Source: Plasmodiophora brassicae
Lineage: Eukaryota
Length of the DNA stretch: 64,000 nucleotides
NCBI GenBank assembly: GCA_036867785.1
Contig: CP145419.1
Location: 310,001-374,000 of the forward strand
Reading direction: 5' to 3'
Shown here: one piece after another, positions 16,861 through 42,595 of the stretch
Layout: the number at the start of each line of letters is the position of its first letter
How positions within the stretch are numbered: the stretch's first letter is position 1
The notes under the pieces: model-generated
Database searches by the model: none
What the model saw: only the letters and a program-made list of their open reading frames with translations
Told to the model about the DNA's origin: nothing
Translations under genes and position numbers: made by a program

Positions 16861-18050
16861 TCATTGGTCCATAGATCTTGTAATGCTCTGCGACGCCGTC
16901 TCGTATGCTCCAAAGAAAAGGAACCCTCCTAGGCCGATCCACGCCACCCTATGGACTGAAGAATATTGTCAGACGCAATGAAGTAATTGAGAGTCTGATT
17001 GCTGATCATACAAATTCCTTTGGTTAGGCCATGGAGCCCTTCATCGGCCCATAGTTTTCTGATGCAGTCGTTGAAGCCATTGTACACGATCTTATGACCC
17101 TGTGTCATCAGCCGTGTCTTGACAACCTGACCACAATTTCAGAAATGAGCGAACCCGTTAATGTACAATGGAATTCGCTCCTACATCCAGAGGGTTCGTA
17201 GCCGCTGCGGAAATGCTACCAGCGATTGCACCCATGGCACCGCTCTCCAGGGGCGTAAGAGTGCGCCCACCCTCCATGTTGGAGTACTGCACTTTTAGCG
17301 TCTCCCACAAGGCAAACTGAAGCGCGTCAAACGGAACCTTACAATGGTAATCAGCAGAGTTGCATTGTACTCACCACAACGTTGTTTACCTCTCTAAGAA
17401 CAGTGGACATGTACCCTCGGTAGAGCCCGGCGACACCATCTCGCCGGACAATGGATTTGACGCATTCTACTGTAGACGAATGCATGCCCGCCTTGTTTGG
17501 AACATGACATTGTGCAGGGAGCGCGCCACGCGACACATACCTGTAACTGCTGCTTCACGACTTCGAACGGGACCCGGACGGCGCACGCGGCCACATTGGC
17601 GATGGACGCGGACCCCATGCTGGCCAGTGCATGGTACTGTGGCGCGACCTGTCACCCAGAATTGCACTCCTGAGCACTGGGTGTACAACACGCAACCACA
17701 CTACGGTACCATGGCGTACGATTTGTTACGGCACGTGTCGTATACAGCGAAGAAGACAGCGGCGGACGGGAACGACCCCGCCATGGCCGACGCTAACCCC
17801 GAGTAGAATTTCAGTGAGCCGCGCGCGACATCCCGCGCTTGGACCCGGGTCTTCAGCGTGTCCAGCGGGAACAGCACGAAATCGGTGAAGGCCCCAGCGG
17901 CCCCGCCAGCCACCCCGGACACTGCCAGGCACGCAACGTCAACATCGTCAGGGCACTGCGACGTGACCGGCACACCCCCCTCATACCGAGCAGCGCATGG
18001 ACGGCACCCGACTCCATTTCGAATGGAGTCCTTTGCCGCGCATTTTCCAT
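16861..18050 (-). CDS. Mitochondrial carrier, S-adenosylmethionine carrier-like (SLC25A26/Pet8 type)
   Basis: Three PxD/ExxK carrier motifs (FPLDTLKTRVQ, VPFEVVKQQLQ, NPLDVVKTRLMT), plus GSFPSAAVFF and REVPFDALQF. Confidence 0.88.
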
Positions 18051-18129
18051 TTCTGACTGCGCCGCCGCCACTTTGTCTCAGCAGCCAGCTTGTGTGGTTC
18101 GCAGTTCGCATGCCACGCTCGATATATAT

Positions 18130-20180
18130 CCCTACTCCGTGGGCTTCACCGTAATATATTACGGTTTAGACTTTGGCCTGTCTCCATAATTTTATAAAGG
18201 ATCCGAAAATTCGTCTAGCTGTACAGTTCGACAGGACCTGCCGGCCAATGAATTTTGGCGAAGACGGCAAGGACTGATCGTTCGTCCTCATCGCACGACA
18301 TTTTTTACAAGCTCCCTCACAAGTCCGGTGGACCTGCGCAAACCGTAATATATTACGGTTTGAAATGAAAATTTGTGGAAAGCCAGTTACGTTCTTAGCG
18401 ACAGTGATGTCTGTGTGTAAAATTCAGTTATGATCCCCGTGAGCGGCAGAGCGCGTTCGGAGCGCGATTGGGGTTTCACTCTGATTGCACACCTGGTATC
18501 CTCCTGAACCTGAGCGACGCCAGCAGTAGGTCAATGACTCAGTAGAAACTGCAAAGCAGAATGCCATGTGAGACAACCTGTGATTCAATGGTGTCATCGC
18601 GACGCTTTCGCGGCCGTCCCCGGCCACGCTTGGCGGCACCAGCATTCAACTCGGGACCACCGTTGCCATCAGAATGGGCGGCAGGCGAGGCAATGCCAGA
18701 TGTCTTCTTCGAAGCGACAATTTCTATGGCGCGTTGTGAGCGTTGCTCCTCTTCGCCTTCTTTCATACTGTACGCCCGCTTTGGGATCGACCGCTTCTTC
18801 ATCGGCAAATGGCGCAGAGCATGGAAGTCGCAGCACGCACGATGGTCGCTTCCGACAGGAGCAGTACGAACTGTTTACGCGTATAGCAGTAATGGTTTGT
18901 CTCGCGGACACACAAGACGCAGCCTCGAACACTTCGCTTAAGACGCTCGTTCGTTTCCGGATCTTGGATCAGCTTCTCCATCGGGTGATGGGCGGAACTC
19001 CTGTGCAATTGCGGAATCAGAACACAATGTCAACCACGTTTGGGATGTTACCTACCTGATCGTCCAGCCTTCATCGGTCCTAAAGACGGAAAGAGCATTA
19101 CGTCGAGGTATCTTGGGGATGAGGTCCCCGAGATTTTGAACGACGCTTCTCTCTGCAAGTACACCTAGGAACGTCGACAGCCTCGTTGAGAATGTCTCGG
19201 CCGGCCTGGATCACGAAGTCTTCTATGGTCTCCGCTGAAACAAGGTCTCGGCGTAACGCTTTGAAAGTCGACAAGGCCGTCTTCTCGTCCTGAAGGTCGT
19301 GTCTGCATTTCCAGTACCTTGGAATATTCATTCAGTCAACAGTGGTAAACAAGACTGAGAGCACGTGACTACCTGAAAGCAATACAGGTGTCCAACCCGC
19401 AGGCTTGGAAGAGCAGGTGGATGACGTACTTGACCTCGAATGGAAGGCTGTTTCGTGGGTACCTCAACTTATTGACATCGAAAGTTGCCTTGTCGACGCA
19501 ACGATCTCGTCGTCGAGGACTAACCAGGTGTTCTCCTTGACGAACAGTTTCCGCGAAGCGGCGACAATCGCTTGCTCAAGAAATCGATAGTTGGAGTATA
19601 GTCTGTGGTGTCCAGGAACGTAATTATTAATGTCACAGGAGCCGGACCGCCCGACCGTCTCGAACGCCCGGAGATGGTTGACCAGCGTCCGGAACAGTTT
19701 GGAGGGCAGCGCCCTCGTTCCGAACAGCGAGGCGCCGTACTTGCAGCGCCTGATCGATCCTGGCGGTGGTGGCCTTTGAGTGATCCGCGAGGCGCTGCTT
19801 GAAAACGGCCGACACGAAGTAGTCTTCCATCAACAACTCGAAGCGTGGCGGATCGCTCGGGATATTCCACCCATTGGTCCCGTTGAACCGCTTCGTAACT
19901 GCTGCTTGAACTGACCTACGAGCGCTCGCACTGCTCGACGCCGGCGCCATGGCAACAGCTCTGGCTGTGGTGGCCCAAAAATTGAAGTTGTTGGCCTGGA
20001 TGTTCGTTCCTATTTTTACAGTTCACCACCATCAGTTTCGAGCATGACGAGTACCCCAAAGAGACACAGGCAGCACCCCTCTAAACCGTAATATATTACG
20101 GTTTAGCCGATCTACAACCAGGACCTCGCAGAGCTATTTTCGGCTAAACCGTAATATATTACGGTTTACACGGAGTAGGG
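18130..20180 (-). mobile_element. piggyBac-like DNA transposon, internally degenerate, ATAT TSD
   Basis: TIR CCCTACTCCGTG at 18130-18141 and its reverse complement at 20169-20180. ATAT flanks at 18126-18129 and 20181-20184. Four palindromes with core ACCGTAATATATTACGGT. Internal minus-strand fragments include LFRTLVNHLRAF...LVLDDEIV, a Cys-rich CVLC..HYCY motif and an AT-hook. Confidence 0.8.
18539..19950 (-). pseudogene. Disrupted transposase-like coding sequence inside the TIR element
   Basis: Fragmented ORFs with stops and frameshifts. The piggyBac-like first catalytic D context WLVLDDE is at about 19506-19526. C-terminal Cys motif and KRGRGRPRK AT-hook. Confidence 0.6.
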
Positions 20181-20222
20181 ATATCGGCATGGGCTAGTCC
20201 CATCGGCGTGGTCTTCGCGCCG

Positions 20223-21916
20223 ATGACGGCGTTATCTCGTGCCGGACCCGGCCAGGGTGTCACTGGCCGCACGGTATGTGCAGACGGCAGAGCGAGTGGG
20301 TCGGTAGGTAGGTAGGTAAACCCATGCGACTGCCCCACAGGGAGGAGTGCCGTGTCCTGCTGCGGGGGGACTGGGGCACGCGCAGTCCGTGCTGCCACAG
20401 CCCGTCTGGAGGATATCTTTGCTGAATCGCCATTGGGCGAATCTCGTCGTCGTCGGCAACAACGACGCCCGACATCCGATGAGCGACCAGGTCCGTGCGC
20501 ACGTCGCCCCCGTGCAGGCGTCGCTGAATCGTGTTCAGGGTGCCGAAACCGGCCGCAGGGCCGGTCGGCCGCCGCGCCTGACGTTGCTGACGTCACCGGT
20601 GCGCACGCTCTATGAATTCTCCTTCGTCGTTCGCGAATCCGTGCACAACGCTGTATTGTATCTGCTGACACATCGCGCGCTCATGGCGTCCGTCGCGGCT
20701 ACTGTCGTCCTGTATGTCATGCTGAAAGTGTCGGGGAGCGCTTGGGCGCACGTTGTCGACCATCATGCCGCTCAGAGTAACAACCACCCGCCGTCGCATC
20801 GTGATTGCGATCCCTTTTGATTCATTCGACCAACTAGTCGCCTGGTGGCTGATGCTGGGCGTCCTGTCTAGTATCGGCCTGGGCACCGGATTGCACACGT
20901 TCGTGCTGTATCTCGGCCCGCATATCGCCAAGGTCACCATGGCGGCCGAGGAATGCAGGTCGCTGATGTTCGAGACAGCCGGCCCCATGGCGTTCATCTG
21001 CGCCGAGGACATTGTGGCCGGATCGCCGCCATCCACGTTTGATATATTCCGGAAGGTCCAATACGGTAAGCGACCGGCAAGTCATCCACAGGAGCCATTT
21101 GACGAACATGGTGTTCTGTAAGTCGCATTCATCTGGGGGCTTGGTACGGCGCTGGGGGAGCTGCCACCGTACTTTATGGCGCGGGCCGCTGCCCGGTCTG
21201 GCCAGACACTAGCCGCCTTGTCGCCGAGAGAAGACGCGTAACAATGGTCGCATTCTTTCCCGATTTCGTTGCTGAACAGGCGTGCAGGGGCAGCAAGAGT
21301 CGCTATGGAAAGCTGGTGGATCGCATCAAGGAGACTGTGTTCGCCATTGTACAGCGATTCGGATTCTGGTCCATTCTTCTGTTTGCGTCCGTCCCGAACC
21401 CGCTCTTTGACCTTGCTGGCGTAACATGCGGTAGCCATTATACGCGCACCTGCAGCAGAGGCGCCCGGTCTGATTGTATTCTATGCAGGGCATTTCGGGG
21501 TACCGTTCTGGACGTTCTTTGGCGCGACCGCCATCGGCAAAGCGGTCCTTAAGGTCGGGCTTCAATCGATGACGGTCATATACATGTTCCATCAAGGCCA
21601 CCTCGAAAGCCTCCTCGATACGGTCCGTATGTTCGTATATTCATGTCGTCCGATCGCCCTCACCACGGGTGCCGCGTAGATGCGAAATTTCCTTCCTGCG
21701 TCGCTGTGCGACTCGATCAAGACGTTCTTCCATGAGTCGAAGGCGCAGTTCCACCGCGCGTCGTCGCAGCCGGGATCGCCCCGGCGCCCGCTGATCGCCA
21801 TCGCCTGGGACACCTTCCTATTCCTGATGCTGGCGTGGTTCCTGAAGTCCATCATCGACGCCGCCGTCCATGAGCGGCAGGTCAAGCAGATGGAGAAGGA
21901 GGCCAAATCGTCGTAG
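20223..21916 (+). CDS. VMP1: Vacuole membrane protein 1 (VMP1/TMEM49, DedA family)
   Basis: [74 protein letters not shown]. Start approximate. Confidence 0.92.
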
Positions 21917-22215
21917 GCAGCAGGACGGCATCGGAATGCGCCGCCCGCCCCCCAATCGGTATCGAATAAACCCATTTCAGCGCCCGGACAACAGTCGTTT
22001 CGGATCATTCCCACGCGTCCGCATTGGTAGCTCGACCTACTCTGTGACGGGTTGCAGAGCGCCACTTCCAACTGTGATGTGCATGGCACCTGGGGCTGAC
22101 CACTGCTGGGCGGCCCTTGTGTGCCGGTCGGCATTTCGAAAGACATCCGGCACCGAGCACCGCGCACGTTGGCGTCGTTGTCGCCCGGGGATCCCGCGAG
22201 GCCTAGGTCGGCAGC

Positions 22216-24575
22216 ATGAGGACGTCTACGAAACTATTGCTATGCATTGGTAGGCCATCCTCGTACGACAGACATGACAGCGTCTGACCAAATGCCCGGG
22301 TTCAGTCGTCGCTGTCGCCGTTATGGCTCTCGTTGAATCAACGGCGCCGGTCACCACACGGCGGCCAACAACACGCAAGCCGACGACGCGCAAGCCGACA
22401 ACGCGCAAGCCGACGACGCGCAAGCCGACAACGCGCAAGCCGACGACGCGCAAGCCGACAACTCGCAAACCGACGACGCGCAAGCCGACAACTCGCAAAC
22501 CAACGACGCGTAAGCCGACGACCCACAAGCCAGTGACGACGCGCAAGCCGACAACTCGTAAACCAACGACACGCAAGCCGACGACCCGCAAGCCAGTAAC
22601 AACTCGCAAGCCGACGACGCGCAAACCAACGACTCGCAAACCAACGACTCGCAAGCCCACGACTCGCAAGCCCACGACTCGCAAGCCCACGACTCGCAAG
22701 CCCACGACACGAAAGCCGACCACACGAAAGCCGACAACTCGCAAGCCGACGACACGTAAGCCGACAACACGTAAACCGACAACACGCAAACCGACAACGC
22801 GCAAGCCGACAACTCGCAAACCAACGACGCGCAAGCCGACGACGCGCAAGGCAGTAACAACGCGTAAGCCAACGACTCGCAAGCCAACCACCCGCAAGCC
22901 GACGACTCGCAAGCCGACCACTGGCAAGAAGGTAACCACTCGCAAGCCGACGACCGGCAAGAAGGCCACGACTCGCAAGCCGACGACTCGCAAGCCAACC
23001 ACCGCCAAGAAGGTCACCACTCGCAAGCCGACGACTCGCAAGCCAACGACTGCCAAGAAGGTCACGACTCGTAAGCCAACCACCGGCAAGAAGGTCACGA
23101 CACGCAAACCTACGACAGGCAAGAAGGTAACGACTCGCAAGCCGACGACTCGCAAGCCAACCACCGCCAAGAAGGTCACGACACGCAAGCCAACCACCGG
23201 CAAGAAGGTTACGACGCGCAAACCTACGACCGGCAAGAAGGTCACGACACGCAAGCCAACGACCGGCAAGAAGGTCACGACACGCAAGCCGACGACCGGC
23301 AAGAAGGTCACGACACGCAAGCCAACGACCGGCAAGAAGGTCACGACACGCAAGCCAACGACCGGCAAGAAGGTCACGACACGCAAGCCGACGACCGGCA
23401 AGAAGGTCACGACACGCAAGCCAACGACCGGCAAGAAGGTCACGACACGCAAGCCAACGACCGGCAAGAAGATCACGACACGCAAGCCGACGACCGGCAA
23501 GAAGGTCTCGACGCGCAAGCCGACGACCGGCAAGAAGGTCTCGACGCGCAAGCCGACCACCGGCAAGAAGGTCTCGACGCGCAAGCCGACCACCGGCAAG
23601 AAGGTCTCGACTCGCAAGCCAACCACCGGCAAGAAGGTCTCGACACGCAAGCCAACGACCGGCAAGAAGATGTCGACACGCAAGCCAACCACCGGCAAGA
23701 AGGTGTCGACACGCAAGCCAACCACCGGCAAGAAGGTGTCGACTCGCAAGCCAACCACCGGCAAGAAGCGCACAACTCGCAAGCCGACCACGAACACGAA
23801 AAAGGGCACGACGAGGATGCCGTCGAACAAGATGATGACATCGTCGGTCGGACCGCAGCTGCGATGCCAGACCGGGTGGGTCGTCTACAACGCGAACTTC
23901 ACGTTCACGCAGGGATCGAATGGCCCCACCTTCATCCAGGCGATGCAGACCGGCACGGTCGGCCAGCTCAGCGCCCTGATCCAGATGAACAACGCGCCGT
24001 GGAACCCGACCGGTCCAACGTACGCCCACGTTCATGTCGGCATGTGTGGCAACGCGTCGACGCCGTCGGCCAACGGCGGCCACCTCAAGATCAACTCGTC
24101 GATCGCGGCAGCCATGCAGAACAACGAGTTCTGGTTCAACACGTCTGTGGCGAACCGCATCGCCCTAGACAAGCTGCCGACGATAACGATCCCGCTGATG
24201 CGGTCAGGCGTCATCGCCAACATGTCGCTGGCCAGGTCGATCGTACAGCACGACTCGAGCGGCGCCAAGCTCGCCTGCTGCAACCTGACGCCCTTCAAGC
24301 CGAGCACGACGGTGAAGCCTGCGCCGACCCCTGCATCTGCACCGACCCCTGCATCTGCACCGACTCCTGCGCCTACGCCTGCATCACCGTCGTCGCCGAC
24401 GCCAGCACCAACACCAGCGCCCACAGTAGCGCCTACCGCCGCGCCGACACCGGCACCTACTCCAGAACCTACACCGGCGCCGGCACCGACGCCTAAGGCC
24501 AGCGGTGCCAACACGCTGTACCACGCATCGACGCTTGTCGCTGTCCTGCCCGTTATGGCAGCGCTTTTCGTTTAA
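22216..24575 (+). CDS. TTRKP-repeat / Cu-SOD-like / PTPA GPI surface protein, copy 1 (long stalk)
   Basis: Exon 1 MRTSTKLLLCI plus intron 22250-22305 completes the signal peptide. About 500 aa of TTRKP and TTRKPTTGKKV repeats. Domain with AHVH, GGH, RSIVQH and LACC. PTPA linker and hydrophobic C-terminus. Confidence 0.88.
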
Positions 24576-37070: not shown

Positions 37071-39768
37071 ATGTCGTCGGTCGGCAAGAGCGTCATCCTC
37101 GAGGAGGACATCGACCCGAACTATGTGCCGACGCGCGAGGAGATCGTCGACTACGCCCAGTTCCTCGGCATGGAATTGCCACGTAAGTGACCGGACCGCT
37201 CTGAGCCCACACGTGACGAGATGCTAGGCGATGAACCGCTGCTGTGGATCGCCACGGAAGGCCTGAAGGCGCCCTTGCCGTCCATGTGGAAGACGTGCCG
37301 AAGCGCCGACGGGGAACAGTACTATTTCAATTTCAGCACCGGTGAATCGACCTGGGAGCACCCGTGCGATCAGGTCGGTGTGACGAACGTGCACCGGTGC
37401 CTGTGGATGTCCTCTGAGCGGGGCGGGGCACAGTTCTACCGTAACCTGTACGAGAAAGAGAAACAGCGCCTGCAGGGCGCCAGCGACGATGGAGCGTCGC
37501 GCCTGACCCGCAGCAAGCCCCTGCTCCCCATCAAAGTGCCATCCATCGACAAGAAGCAACCGCACCCTGGGAAACTTGCCACTCTCAAGACCGAACCGCC
37601 GAAAGAATCACCAGTACAGCCACCACCACAGGAACCTAAACCCACCGACATTGATCGCCAGGTCCAGGACAACGCCAAGAGGCCAATGTTTGTCGCCTGA
37701 CGATGCGTTGGTAGTTGAGGGAGAAGTCGGCGCAGTGGATGCAGACGGAGAAGGCGCGCTTGGAAGGCGAACGCGCCGACTGGCTCGAACGTCGCCGCCA
37801 GGAGGCGGAGCACTGGCAGGCCGCCAAAGCCGCCGAGATCGAGGCCGACAAACAGCGTAAGGTCCAGGCGCTCCTCAACGACGAAGTCGCGGCGATCGAA
37901 CGGGTACGTACGCAACGTAACGTCGACATCGGTCGTGAACGAGCGAATAACAGGAGGCGGATGCGTCCGCGAAACGATTGGAGCAGCATCGCGTGAAAAT
38001 GGCCGAGCAGGCCAAGGCGCTGGAGGCGGAGATGGAGGAGCAGAGACGTAAAGCGGCTGCGGCGTTACGCGACGAGGTCGCCAAGCGGGAGGCGACGACG
38101 CGGGAGCGGTTGGCCGATCTCGACGCGGCGCACCAGGCGAACATCGAACGCCTGCGCCGGCAATGGCGCCAGGAGCTGGACGCGCTGGAGCAGGAGCACG
38201 TCGACCAGGTCCGCATCCGGAACGAGGCGCACGCGGCGCGCGTCGCCGAACTCGACCTGCAGGCTGACCAGCTCGAGCGGGACGCCGAGGCGGACCGCGC
38301 CCGACGCCAGGCCGACTGGAACGACCGCGTCCTGGCCGTCGAACGCGACGGCCAGGAGCGCGTCCGCCGCGAGGACGCCAAGTGGGCGCAAAAGCGCGAA
38401 CGGGAACAGGCCGCTGCCGACGGCGAGCTGCAGACCCGGGTCGACGAACTGCAGACCCGCGTCGGCGAACTGCAACGGGAACTGACGGAGGCGCGCGCGC
38501 AGCAGCAGGCGACGCTGGAGCAGATGCGGCGCCTGCGCGCCGAACACGACGACCTGGCCGCCAGGCACGCCGCCGTGCAGGACGCGAACACGCGCTTGAA
38601 GGAACGGGTAGGTGTGATCGGGCCAGCCCCGCCAGTGGCCGACTGGTGCCGTTGAACAACGGGTCGACAGGTCGGGGCACACGGCAACGACCACGCCGTC
38701 GTGGCGGACCTGAACCGGCAGCTGACGGAGCTGGAGGCGCTGTACGAGGGCACGTGCACGCAGCTGGAGAAGGCGGTCGCGGAGCGGGATGCCGCCGTGA
38801 AGGCGTTGGCCGACCACGACGCCCGCCCGCAGATCGCGTCAGCACCTGCTGATGACACGTCATCCGAGGACGACGAGTTTGACGACGTAACTGGCCGGCA
38901 GGACCCGATGACGTTTTCGCGACTGATGAACATGATGGGTTGGTTCAGGCGCTGAGCAGCGACGTCAGCGAAGTCAGCGACTCGGGCGTGGACACGTGGT
39001 CCCGTCACCTCGGCAAGGAGTCGCAGCACCTGCAGTCGGCGATCGCGTACCTGGCCAGGCAGCGCGCCTACATCTGCAAGGCGAGGACCGCCCTGGTGCG
39101 CGACCAGGAACGCTGGAAGCGCGATCGGCGTGCGGCACCCACTGGCGTCGCCGATCACGACCTGGGTAACGTTCCCGACACGAGCGATGTTAACCGGCGG
39201 TGACGCGGTTGTGGTGCAGAGAGGGACCTGAAGCGCCGGAAACGGTTCCTGGACATGCGCATGAAGCGGCTGAACGCGGAGATTGGACAGTACCGGGCCC
39301 TGAAACGCGGGTTGACGTCCCGCCGCGAGCGCCTGCGCGAGTTGCAGGACAACGCACAGAACGTAAGCGAGAAGCGGGTGCGGCATGACGATACATGTGA
39401 CCTGGGAACAGGTACCGTCGGCGAGGAACGAGGCCGAGCGCCGCGAGGCGTCACCGGAGAACGTGCAGGTGGTGGACACGCCGAAAACGTGGCAGGAGGT
39501 GCCGTTTGTGGCACCGGCCAGGGAGACGACGACAGCGCGGGCAGCGTTCCGGGACGTGGAGCCGGCGGAAGGGGGCACTCGGGCCGCCCTGCACAACCAC
39601 TACGGGTGGCTGAAATCGTTCCGCAACGAGATCCATCGAGCGGCGGCGGCCAGCATTGCGGAAGGGATGCCGAGCCCGCGATACGTCAGCAGCGCCGCCA
39701 GGATGCTAACGCCGGCGGCGACAGCCAACGGCAATGACATCACGATCCGGATCAAGGTAGAGCAATAA
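37071..39768 (+). CDS. CEP164: CEP164-like WW-domain coiled-coil protein
   Basis: ILEEDIDPNYVPTREEIVDYAQFLGM, LLWIATEGLKAPLP, a WW domain (YYFNFSTGESTWEHPCD) and a long coiled coil. Confidence 0.85.
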
Positions 39769-39816
39769 AGTCGATGAGAGTTGGTGTATTTCGGTTAGCG
39801 ATGCGGCGAGGTCGCT

Positions 39817-42595
39817 TTAGACCTTGTCGTAGTAGTCCTTGATGTCGGGCAGAATTGCCTTCATGCCCTTGCGCTCGCGGATCTCCATGACGATCTTGTT
39901 CGCCATGCTGCCGTCGTCAGTGATGATGCCGGCGACCTCAGCGAAGTGAGAGAAGACCATCTGCGGGAACGCCTGTCCAGCTAACAGACACGGTGGGACG
40001 TTAATTACACGATGTCGACACTGGATCCCGTTTCCGCCTCACCAGTGTTCTTCCGAAGCAGTTCGGTGAAACCGAAACTTTCAGTGACAGGCAACAGGGC
40101 CTGCACCTTGGTCATCGGCGTGCCCGCCTTCTGGACCTCCTTCTCGACAATACCACGACGCTGGGACAGCGTGTTGTAGACGCCCGAGACGGCGGTCTGC
40201 GGGACCGTGATCTCGACGAGGTACAGTGGCTCCATGAGCTTGGGGCCGGACACGATCTGGCAGGCCGAAAATACACGCTTGGCGGCGGGCATCAGCTGAC
40301 CGGCACCACGGTGGATGGCATCGGCGTGCAGGACGACGTCCTCCAGGTTGAAACGGATACCACGCATCGCTTCGTCGGCGAAAACACCACCGGCAGACGC
40401 CTGCTGGAAGGCGCCAACGAGCGAGTCCTTGATTTCAGACAGGAACTGGGCGGCCTTGGTGACATCGGCCAGGATGTTACCCTTGCCGTCCGGCGGGCAG
40501 CCGAACGACCAGACCTTACGCGCTTCGGTGACGTCCCAGCCGTACTTGTCGGCCATGTAACGACCACGAACCTTGGCCTCATCCGTCATCTTGACAACGT
40601 CGTTCTCAATGTCCCGGACAAGATCCTCGTCGATCGGCTCGGCCGAGAAGTAAAGACGGTTGTGCTTGTTGGGCGACTTGGAGACACACTGCATGTCGCT
40701 CTTCCGGGAGACGGTCTCACAGAAATTGACGACCGGGTTACCGATCGTGATCGGCGCACCCTTCATGTACTCGTACTGCAGGTCGTTCAAGCAGATTTCC
40801 AAGTGCAACTCACCGGCGCCGGCAACGATGTGCTCACCCGTCTTGGCATGGTAGACGAGAACCATGGGGTCCGACTTGGCCAGGCGCTTCAGACCTTCGA
40901 CAAGCTTCGGAAGGTCCTGGGCGTTCTTCGGCTCGACAGCGCGACGCACGACAGGGCTGACCGAGAACTTCATCGTGATGAACGGGTGCGCCTCCTCGTA
41001 GGTGGTCAGCGTCCCGCTCTTCAGCAGGAACTGGTCAATGCCCACCAGACCGACGATGTTACCACAGGGGCAGTCGGCGATCTGTTCGATCTTGCCAGCC
41101 ATGAGCAGGACGGTACGCTGGACCTTCTTGATGAACAGGTCCTTCTTCTCGCCAACGACGAAATCGGGGCCGAGGATACGAACCGTGTGACCCGTACGAA
41201 CGACACCAGAGAAGACACGGCCGAAAGCGAAGAATCGGGACGCATCGACGGTCGGCACCATCTTGCTGACGTACATCATCAGCGGGCCATTCGGGTCACA
41301 CTTCTTGATGGCCGTCGCGGCCTCATCGTCCTGAGGACCCGGGTACAGCGTCTCACATCGGTATTTCTACAAGGTCGACAACAGGTAAGAAAACAGAATG
41401 AGGAATCGACACCACGTCAAACCGTACCTGGGCCTTGACGGGGGACGGAAGGTGCTTGACCAGCATGTCCAGAAGACATTCAGCGGCGGGCAGCCACGAC
41501 TGCATGACACGCTTGAGAAGCGGCTTGCCGGTCAGGTCAACAGCGTCCTTCGGGACTGTACAAAGGCAAAAGGTTGGCCACATGATATGGTAGGCGAACA
41601 CGCCATCAACAACAAAACGTACCCTTGATGTTCAGAGCAGTGATGTACTTGTTGAAGACATCCTTCTTGTCCTCCATGATGGCGTTGAACAGCATGTTAA
41701 TGGGGTTCAGAATGAACTTGCAGAAACCACGCTCGTTGGCAACACCGTCTGTCGTGGCCTTCGTTGTCCACTTCTTCGCCTTGGCGCTGTAGTAGTTCTC
41801 ACCCCACAGACGGGTCATCATCTTGTCCTTCGGGACACCCATCTTCTTGCTGTACATCGCCGCGAATCGCTCCAGAGAGAAACCCCAGCCGTGCAGACCG
41901 GAACCGAAGGCGACTGTGCCCTTCTCGGGGTACACCTGCAGATCTCCAATGGCGTCGTCCTTGTACGTCTCAATGACGACGTTGACGGACTCGACCGCGG
42001 CACGGAACGTCTGGTAGGCTTCCTCATCGGGCAGATGCTGCTCCAGGAAGACACGGTCGAGCTTGTTCAAGAACAGGACCGGGACGATACGCTCGTCAAT
42101 GGCCTGACGCAAGACGGTCTCCGTCTGGACGCAGACGCCCTCGATACAGTCGACGACGACGAGAGCACCGTCGGTGACACGCAGCGCGGCCGTGACTTCA
42201 CTGGAGAAGTCGACGTGTCCGGGCGAGTCGATCAAGTTGATCAGGAATGGAATCGGCTTGGTCTTGCCGGCGGCAATCTCCTCCTCTTCCGGCTCACGTT
42301 CGTAGTACAAACTAACGGACGTGGACTTGATCGTGATACCACGGTCTGTCGCGAAACATGATTACTATGCGAGGAGCGCTTTCGTGACGCGGCTGCAAGT
42401 ACCGATTTCATCCTGGCGCGTATCGGTGGTACGCTTGTCACCGGCGTCGGCTTCAGCCATCATACCGGCGGCGGCCAGCAGTGAGTCCGTCAGCGTCGAC
42501 TTGCCGTGGTCGACGTGCGCGATGACACTCATGTTCCTGATGTTGTCCGGGTGGTCCATCATGGCCCGGATCTGGTCGATCGTGAAATTCACCAT
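39817..42595 (-). CDS. EEF2: Translation elongation factor 2
   Basis: [49 protein letters not shown], diphthamide loop [11 protein letters not shown], and C-terminus DYYDKV. Confidence 0.98.

Follow-up and report, generated by a model that had tools for sequence, protein, structure and literature searches.

An ATAT-flanked, non-autonomous transposon of Plasmodiophora brassicae with piggyBac-type ancestry and a predicted nuclease-bearing parent transposase

Results

Boundaries, termini and palindromes of the element

The window analyzed in this study, a stretch of 64,000 nucleotides from Plasmodiophora brassicae (contig CP145419.1, positions 310,001 to 374,000 of the forward strand), carries an insertion in a gap of about 120 bp between two divergent genes at window positions 17300-18050 and 20224-21000. 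Both genes are spliced in run X15, which was taken as RNA by guess, backed only by its spliced contigs. The minus-strand neighbor is a mitochondrial-carrier gene (PF00153, E=8e-14); the plus-strand neighbor has no Pfam match and is presumably VMP1-like. Elsewhere in the window a strong AT skew was observed at 22001-24000 (0.55) and 38001-40000 (0.24), which probably reflects simple repeats. A first-pass annotation had described the insertion as a piggyBac-like transposon of 2051 bp flanked by ATAT, and these boundaries were confirmed: the interval from ATAT to ATAT (18126-20184, window coordinates) encloses a 2,051-bp element with the following ends and repeats.

18126..18129, no strand: ATAT target-site duplication on the 3' (downstream) side of the gene (sequence)
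18130..18141, plus strand: 12-bp terminal inverted repeat CCCTACTCCGTG (repeat search and genome-wide 12-mer count)
18148..18167, no strand: subterminal palindrome 1, 20 nt, 18 nt from the end (repeat search)
18340..18361, no strand: subterminal palindrome 2, 22 nt, about 194 nt inward of palindrome 1 (repeat search)
20083..20104, no strand: subterminal palindrome 3, 22 nt (repeat search)
20146..20167, no strand: subterminal palindrome 4, 22 nt, 13 nt from the end (repeat search)
20169..20180, minus strand: 12-bp terminal inverted repeat CACGGAGTAGGG on the 5' (upstream) side of the gene (repeat search and 12-mer count)
20181..20184, no strand: ATAT target-site duplication on the 5' side of the gene (sequence)

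The termini are CCC, as in piggyBac. When aligned, the two ends resemble each other over 44 nt (89%, one 3-nt gap), which agrees with the inverted-repeat similarity of about 40 bp with an indel seen earlier; what had gone unremarked is that the bulk of this similarity is a perfect palindrome of 20-22 nt (AAACCGTAATATATTACGGTTT), of which the element has four, a pair towards each end. Its spacing is asymmetric, with 18 and 210 nt from one end and 13 and 76 nt from the other, and resembles the internal repeat of piggyBac, for which a palindromic, asymmetrically spaced repeat bound by the Cys-rich dimer is described (PMC7351741).

Copies in the genome and their ATAT flanks

The assembly to which the window belongs (25.3 Mb, 20 contigs) was searched for copies, and four two-ended ones and a lone end were found.

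C12, ATAT starting at C12:328126: the window element
C1:1700988-1703038, ATAT starting at C1:1700984: two-ended copy
C12:884459-886505, ATAT starting at C12:884455: two-ended copy
C17:588754-600247, ATAT starting at C17:588750: two-ended copy, split by three nested insertions
C11:1130297-1131000 (L053:2294-2872): fifth, more diverged lone end (74-91%), with ATAT

The two-ended copies are 98-99.8% alike, differ by 5 to 31 substitutions and have a common internal structure. The exact 12-mer end occurs nine times in the genome, always inside copies of this element; ATAT adjoins all nine termini, and the outer flanks are unrelated. A genome-wide tabulation of flanking tetramers, as had been suggested at the outset, thus recovered further copies, all at ATAT; full-length copies had been looked for as well, and all four two-ended copies proved defective with identical breaks. 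Among the 12-mer matches with one mismatch, none of 21 inspected lies next to ATAT (24 in total, three without a locus), and 17 of the 20 genomic places that match the palindrome core with at most two mismatches are within these copies. ATAT accounts for 116 of 1,604 NTAN tetramers in the window and for 133 of 1,892 in 84 kb from other loci, or about 7%, so that the chance of finding it at five of five independent sites, among NTAN tetramers, is about 2e-6.

A single-ATAT empty site, which the first-pass annotation proposed to look for, did not appear at the window insertion in any of three DNA runs (X11, X12, X13), each of which contains both junctions, and a local BLAST of the flanks against the retrieved loci only gave no paralogous empty site. 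As no empty site was seen and ATAT is palindromic, the evidence for a 4-bp duplication is indirect as long as the ATAT family is considered alone.

The copy on C1 immediately precedes an RCC1-domain frame that is oriented head to head with a HEAT-repeat gene. Two of the four copies are in short divergent promoter regions of the host and could therefore affect expression. The nested insertions of the C17 copy span C17:589015-600021 (L054, L055) and comprise a 424-bp insert that contains a long direct repeat and has a T/A-rich tail, an LTR retrotransposon of 5.5 kb whose 87-bp LTRs are identical, and a tandem array of 3.4 kb bordered by related LTR ends. The lone end on C11 directly adjoins a Gypsy-type LTR retrotransposon, and no continuation of its element was found in the next 10 kb.

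A broken transposase gene

On the minus strand, the element contains the remnant of a transposase gene, the parts of which are given below with positions on the family profile A1 described in the following section.

18510..18577, minus strand: intron 3, 68 nt, GT-AG, spliced in run X15
18596..18631, minus strand: AT-hook-like basic tail KRGRGRPRKR, also in the C4 relic (Pfam E=0.11, below cut-off)
18880..18924, minus strand: first half of the Cys-rich C-terminal domain (RGCVLC..HYC); second half lost, frame break near 18880
19001..19055, minus strand: intron 2, 55 nt, GT-AG (run X15)
19056..19317, minus strand: helical region past the third Asp, profile 808-913; frame break near 19170-19210
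19318..19372, minus strand: intron 1, 55 nt, GT-AG, position as in the C4 relic (run X15)
19373..19499, minus strand: segment with the third catalytic Asp, VDKATFD, profile 769-802; Asp codon 19494-19492
19493..19500, minus strand: junction of a large internal deletion; similarity to the C9 relic starts here, loose end at 19499
19500..19724, minus strand: segment up to the first catalytic Asp, profile 161-235; Asp codon 19514-19512 (E=1.8e-7; hhalign probability 94%)
19735..19950, minus strand: N-terminal remnant, likely start ATG at 19950, profile 21-80 (weak, E=0.003)

Further pieces of the window cover profile positions 915-944. The fragments reported before, namely the lead-in to the first catalytic Asp and the Cys-rich domain, are thus present, and so is the basic tail, whose reading as an AT-hook falls below the Pfam cut-off. 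It had also been stated that the rest of the catalytic core is missing, which holds for the second Asp; in contrast, the third-Asp segment and the helices that follow it survive in another frame, so that the D1 and D3 segments only are kept in the window copy. About 530 profile positions, including the second Asp and the whole YqaJ-type nuclease, were lost at one junction. Its loose end at 19499 is present in three of three DNA runs. A relic on C9 begins to match the element precisely at 19499, with 87-92% identity from there on; in this relic, KTKGGV precedes that point and nuclease pieces lie further upstream. Since both sides of the junction share GCGTCG, the deletion likely arose by microhomology-driven gap repair.

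One X15 contig of 1,590 nt covers 18177-19944 on the minus strand with three GT-AG introns, and removal of intron 1 fuses CIAFR in frame with YWK, a junction shared with the C4 relic. Even after splicing, the message is interrupted at four sites and the longest open stretch has 140 codons, which rules out an intact spliced transposase. A domesticated gene was likewise ruled out, as the sequence is multi-copy, broken and bounded by terminal inverted repeats. Because the gene has four breaks, the same ones in every copy, the element is non-autonomous. Taken together, the 2,051-bp element is genuine and was mobilised recently, and its flanks are consistently ATAT.

The parent transposase family

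None of 14 frames in the window gave a piggyBac-like Pfam match, so that the PF13843 match that had been expected is not found directly in the fragments; it appears at the level of the family, whose profile matches piggyBac. A genome search with two window fragments detected relics on C4, one of which (L091:4800-6740) has the motifs SCDG..VEFK..Q upstream of KGGVDKATFD and a complete Cys-rich domain. Its nuclease stretch matches YqaJ at only E=0.21 in Pfam and reaches 0.94 in Atlas with YqaJ clusters. An exhaustive protein search seeded by this piece returned 158 proteins; a word-index homologue search for longer proteins with the same piece yielded none among 904 candidates. Several of the 30 long proteins that were scanned carry both YqaJ and DDE_Tnp_1_7.

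From 150 of the 158 matches, 26 rows were picked for length to build the alignment and profile A1; YqaJ is recognized in nine of them and PF13843 in five. The profile matches Trichoplusia ni piggyBac (6x67) at E=4.5e-15 in two blocks, 135-307 (with D268) and 432-504 (with D447), and piggyBat (9c0f) at 4.4e-13, where the Cys-rich region aligns with piggyBat 514-574. Between the two piggyBac blocks, A1 weakly matches lambda-type exonucleases. The search behind A1 started from the nuclease piece, so that the presence of the nuclease in its members is built in and only the piggyBac match counts as independent. The window fragments map onto this profile, and with ATAT at all nine exact termini this supports the initial proposal of a piggyBac-type transposon with an ATAT target. 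The D-D-D residues plus the nuclease residues E-D-E-K are kept in 20 of 26 rows. The position of piggyBac Y439 is aromatic (Tyr, Trp or Phe) in 25 of 26 rows, and at that of N440, 12 of the 26 rows have Asn and 10 have Ser; C4 and C9 have Cys.

The relatives have about 1,000-1,400 amino acids, of which about 400, including the YqaJ fold, lie between D2 and D3. P0004, a P. brassicae protein annotated only as YqaJ-domain protein, is 83-89% identical to an element on C19. Searched by structure, its model (mean pLDDT 69) matches both LHK and lambda exonuclease, at E of about 1e-4, as well as 6x67 (1.6e-4), and the C19 relative matches PF13843 (E=2.1e-5). Judged from profiles and this model, the parent enzyme is predicted to be a piggyBac-type transposase in which a PD-(D/E)XK nuclease replaces the small insertion domain. 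The C19 element ends in TAGGG|ATAT, with palindromes 15 and about 203-215 nt from the end. It is frameshifted, its 3' end is single-copy, and its 5' end was not found in the search. For P0004, none of 16 metagenome stretches was confirmed as a locus, so that all duplications considered here come from the P. brassicae assembly.

A FastTree tree was calculated from 38 rows with midpoint rooting, without a canonical piggyBac outgroup and without C4a, which is short. The window element, C9 and C4 group with a support of 1.0, although the window and C9 share only 37 columns of the alignment, and are joined by C19, P0004 and P0003 at 0.98; the families with NTAN targets are elsewhere in the tree. 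For an ATAT subclade, C19 contributes one end only.

Sister families duplicate NTAN tetramers

Further families in the genome match A1, all with CCC termini and with palindromic subterminal repeats of their own.

Family 1 (CCCCAAACTCCGTGG ends): flanks ATAA on C8, TTAG on C3, TTAT on C6, TTAA on C11
Family 1, long copy L107, C8:519650-523496: duplication ATAA; copies on C3, C6, C11, C18 and C14
Family 2 (CCCTGATC ends): flanks CTAG on C6, GTAT on C10, unmatched ATAA/GTTA on C15
Family 2, C10:286827-290494 (L110:3328-6995): GTAT; looks intact through one intron
Family 2, C6:438150-440463 (L109): CTAG; internal deletion, 99.5-99.8% identical
Family 3, C6:1123835-1127665 (L106:2836-6666): TTAC; single two-ended relative, looks intact

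Matching 4-bp NTAN repeats directly abut the CCC ends of seven of these eight two-ended sister elements, and five of the repeats are non-palindromic; TTAA was found once among the eight, and the flanks of the C15 element do not match. Of three lone ends, one on C14 (family of L106) abuts a tetramer other than NTAN and two abut NTAN. The family 1 ends share ACTCCGTG with the window terminus, and this family includes 2.3-kb deletion derivatives with duplications TTAG, TTAT and TTAA. Family 2 has repeated GTACAATWATTGTAC palindromes; a loose pattern for its ends gave 2,685 mostly chance matches and was set aside.

L106 and L110 can be read as frames of about 1,040-1,100 amino acids through one predicted GT-AG intron. 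In L106, two open reading frames are joinable in this way to about 1,100 amino acids, and the insertion harbors a SAP domain (E=5.8e-9). Both elements have other ends and palindromes, share 13-15% identity with the window pieces and belong to another clade. An intact partner with the ends of the ATAT family was not found in the assembly, where these termini occur only in defective copies.

Discussion

Origin of the element

In our view, the 2,051-bp element is most probably (about 0.87) a non-autonomous cut-and-paste element that arose by internal deletions from a parent of the piggyBac lineage, which would have encoded a transposase of about 1,000-1,100 amino acids with a YqaJ/lambda-exonuclease domain between D2 and D3, and that was mobilised, with duplication of ATAT, by a partner no longer found intact in the assembly. 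The ends, the copies, their ATAT flanks, the broken gene and its ancestry are shown by the sequence comparisons. By analogy with piggyBac, a dimer of the partner transposase would have bound the CCC termini and its Cys-rich domains the palindromes. Nicking, formation and opening of a 4-nt hairpin and footprint-free excision would have followed, and joining to a 4-bp staggered cut would have duplicated ATAT. The defective 2,051-bp form would then have been multiplied in one piece by that partner.

Alternative origins of the flanks and copies

The flanks of the ATAT family cannot by themselves tell a terminus from a duplication, since ATAT is palindromic. The ATAT, or its inner AT, might thus belong to the element, with a 2-bp AT duplication or none, as in other groups that carry a nuclease (ISL2EU, Spy), and with an enzyme that is not ATAT-specific; the three DNA runs without an empty site are compatible with this, and ISL2EU carries a YqaJ open reading frame of its own (PMC4122938). 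The sister families argue otherwise, as their CCC ends abut 4-bp direct repeats that are not palindromic (ATAA, TTAG, TTAT, GTAT, TTAC), and the catalytic core is of the piggyBac type, whose active sites are described to set a 4-bp offset (PMC7351741). We consider a terminal ATAT quite improbable. The sister repeats fix the 4-bp register and therefore argue for ATAT as a true duplication, which makes it, as far as sequences tell, a probable subclade preference around a central TA common to the lineage.

It is even less probable that the partner was an NTAN-permissive transposase, for instance one encoded by the intact-looking element on C6 or C10, with the uniform ATAT explained by few events or by selection. 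L106 and L110 are indeed the sole intact-looking relatives found, and there are only five independent ATAT sites; against this, all five fall on a tetramer that makes up such a small share of NTAN, and both candidates differ from the window element in termini, palindromes, sequence and clade. The near-identity of the copies might also be due to segmental duplication or an assembly artefact in place of transposition, to which we assign a negligible probability: the identity ends exactly at ATAT on both sides with unrelated flanks beyond, three independent DNA runs all contain the junctions and the C17 copy has nested insertions of its own.

Target recognition and the embedded nuclease

In the piggyBac structures as described (PMC7351741), residues V414/L416/Y439 and N440 secure the second and third target bases, and the outer pair depends on a DNA-DNA hydrogen bond that stacks on Y283. 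From this contact scheme, a conserved central TA with outer bases that are free or fixed anew would therefore be predicted. An enzyme of this lineage may read the central TA, the bases contacted by Y439 and N440 in piggyBac, while the outer bases would be free in the sister families (NTAN) and fixed as A..T in the ATAT subclade. The nuclease would not be needed for resealing of the donor site, because duplication as a direct repeat leaves complementary overhangs, palindromic or not. Its most likely task would be the trimming of 5' ends. It is tempting to speculate that it removes the 4-nt 5' flap from the donor that cannot pair with a differing target tetramer, a role that we propose tentatively. 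Resection of the donor break, which would favor gap repair from the sister chromatid, is a nearly as probable role. Somewhat more doubtful is the wider proposal of an undescribed piggyBac-type lineage with a lambda-exonuclease that reads the central TA only, in which flap removal by the nuclease would free the outer bases and subclades would have fixed them again, as in ATAT.

Relation to known transposons

Strict targeting of TTAA is a textbook trait of piggyBac that limits its use as a vector. Like piggyBac (6x67) and piggyBat (9c0f), the present lineage has CCC termini, short terminal inverted repeats, palindromic subterminal repeats, a D-D-D core in the family profile and a C-terminal Cys-rich domain, and seven of eight two-ended sister elements share with piggyBac a 4-bp duplication with a central TA, which is probable for the ATAT family too. 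It thus agrees with canonical piggyBac in termini, core and Cys-rich domain and departs from it in the target and the insertion domain. ATAT (NTAN in the sisters) takes the place of TTAA, the parent enzyme has about double the length of piggyBac's, the gene has introns and the window copy is non-autonomous. A lambda-exonuclease-type domain is predicted where piggyBac has its three-strand insertion domain, described as residues 372-433 (PMC7351741). CC..GG termini, terminal inverted repeats of 12-19 bp and often palindromic subterminal repeats are listed as piggyBac criteria (PMC5381638), and in that survey of 157 elements, sites other than TTAA, ATAT included, occur only for single-copy elements and are ascribed to mutation (Bouallegue et al., 2017).

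The same accessory nuclease family accompanies a DDE transposase in ISL2EU, as a separate open reading frame (PMC4122938), in KolobokE, where a YqaJ-type nuclease is described downstream (PMC9587614), and in the present lineage. Unlike in ISL2EU and KolobokE, which combine a Harbinger-like or Kolobok core with a nuclease outside the DDE domain, the core is of the piggyBac type here and the nuclease lies between D2 and D3. Kolobok itself was ruled out by the CC..GG ends and the piggyBac core.

PiggyBacA and piggyBacX are divergent protist and algal offshoots of piggyBac, and piggyBacA targets ATAT, which the flanks of the 2,051-bp element fit. Going by these labels alone, the present lineage presumably falls within the piggyBacA/piggyBacX groups of Repbase/Dfam, where it is rather likely to be catalogued already. 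A recent preprint (bioRxiv 10.1101/2025.07.30.667784) classifies repeats of P. brassicae under the label DNA/PiggyBac-X. In the literature searched, to which Repbase Reports and most subscription journals did not belong, no description was found of a lineage with YqaJ inside piggyBac or of a multi-copy ATAT piggyBac family.

The window copy itself is dead. One family keeps ATAT at all five insertion sites and its sisters use at least seven NTAN tetramers. This fits the structures as described, where the protein recognizes the central TA through its contacts and the outer pair is determined by a DNA-DNA bond (PMC7351741). The choice of outer bases by piggyBac-type enzymes and the role of an embedded exonuclease become directly testable, and if the central TA is indeed what is read, a single genome would offer the piggyBac scaffold in several natural versions that differ in their target (ATAT, NTAN).

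Relics of the lineage are often found in or beside fold-back inverted repeats with arms of 66-222 bp (92-100%), namely at L090:4686-5388, L091:4223-4766, L056:4923-5127 and L105:7995-8491, which suggests products of hairpin or template-switch repair.
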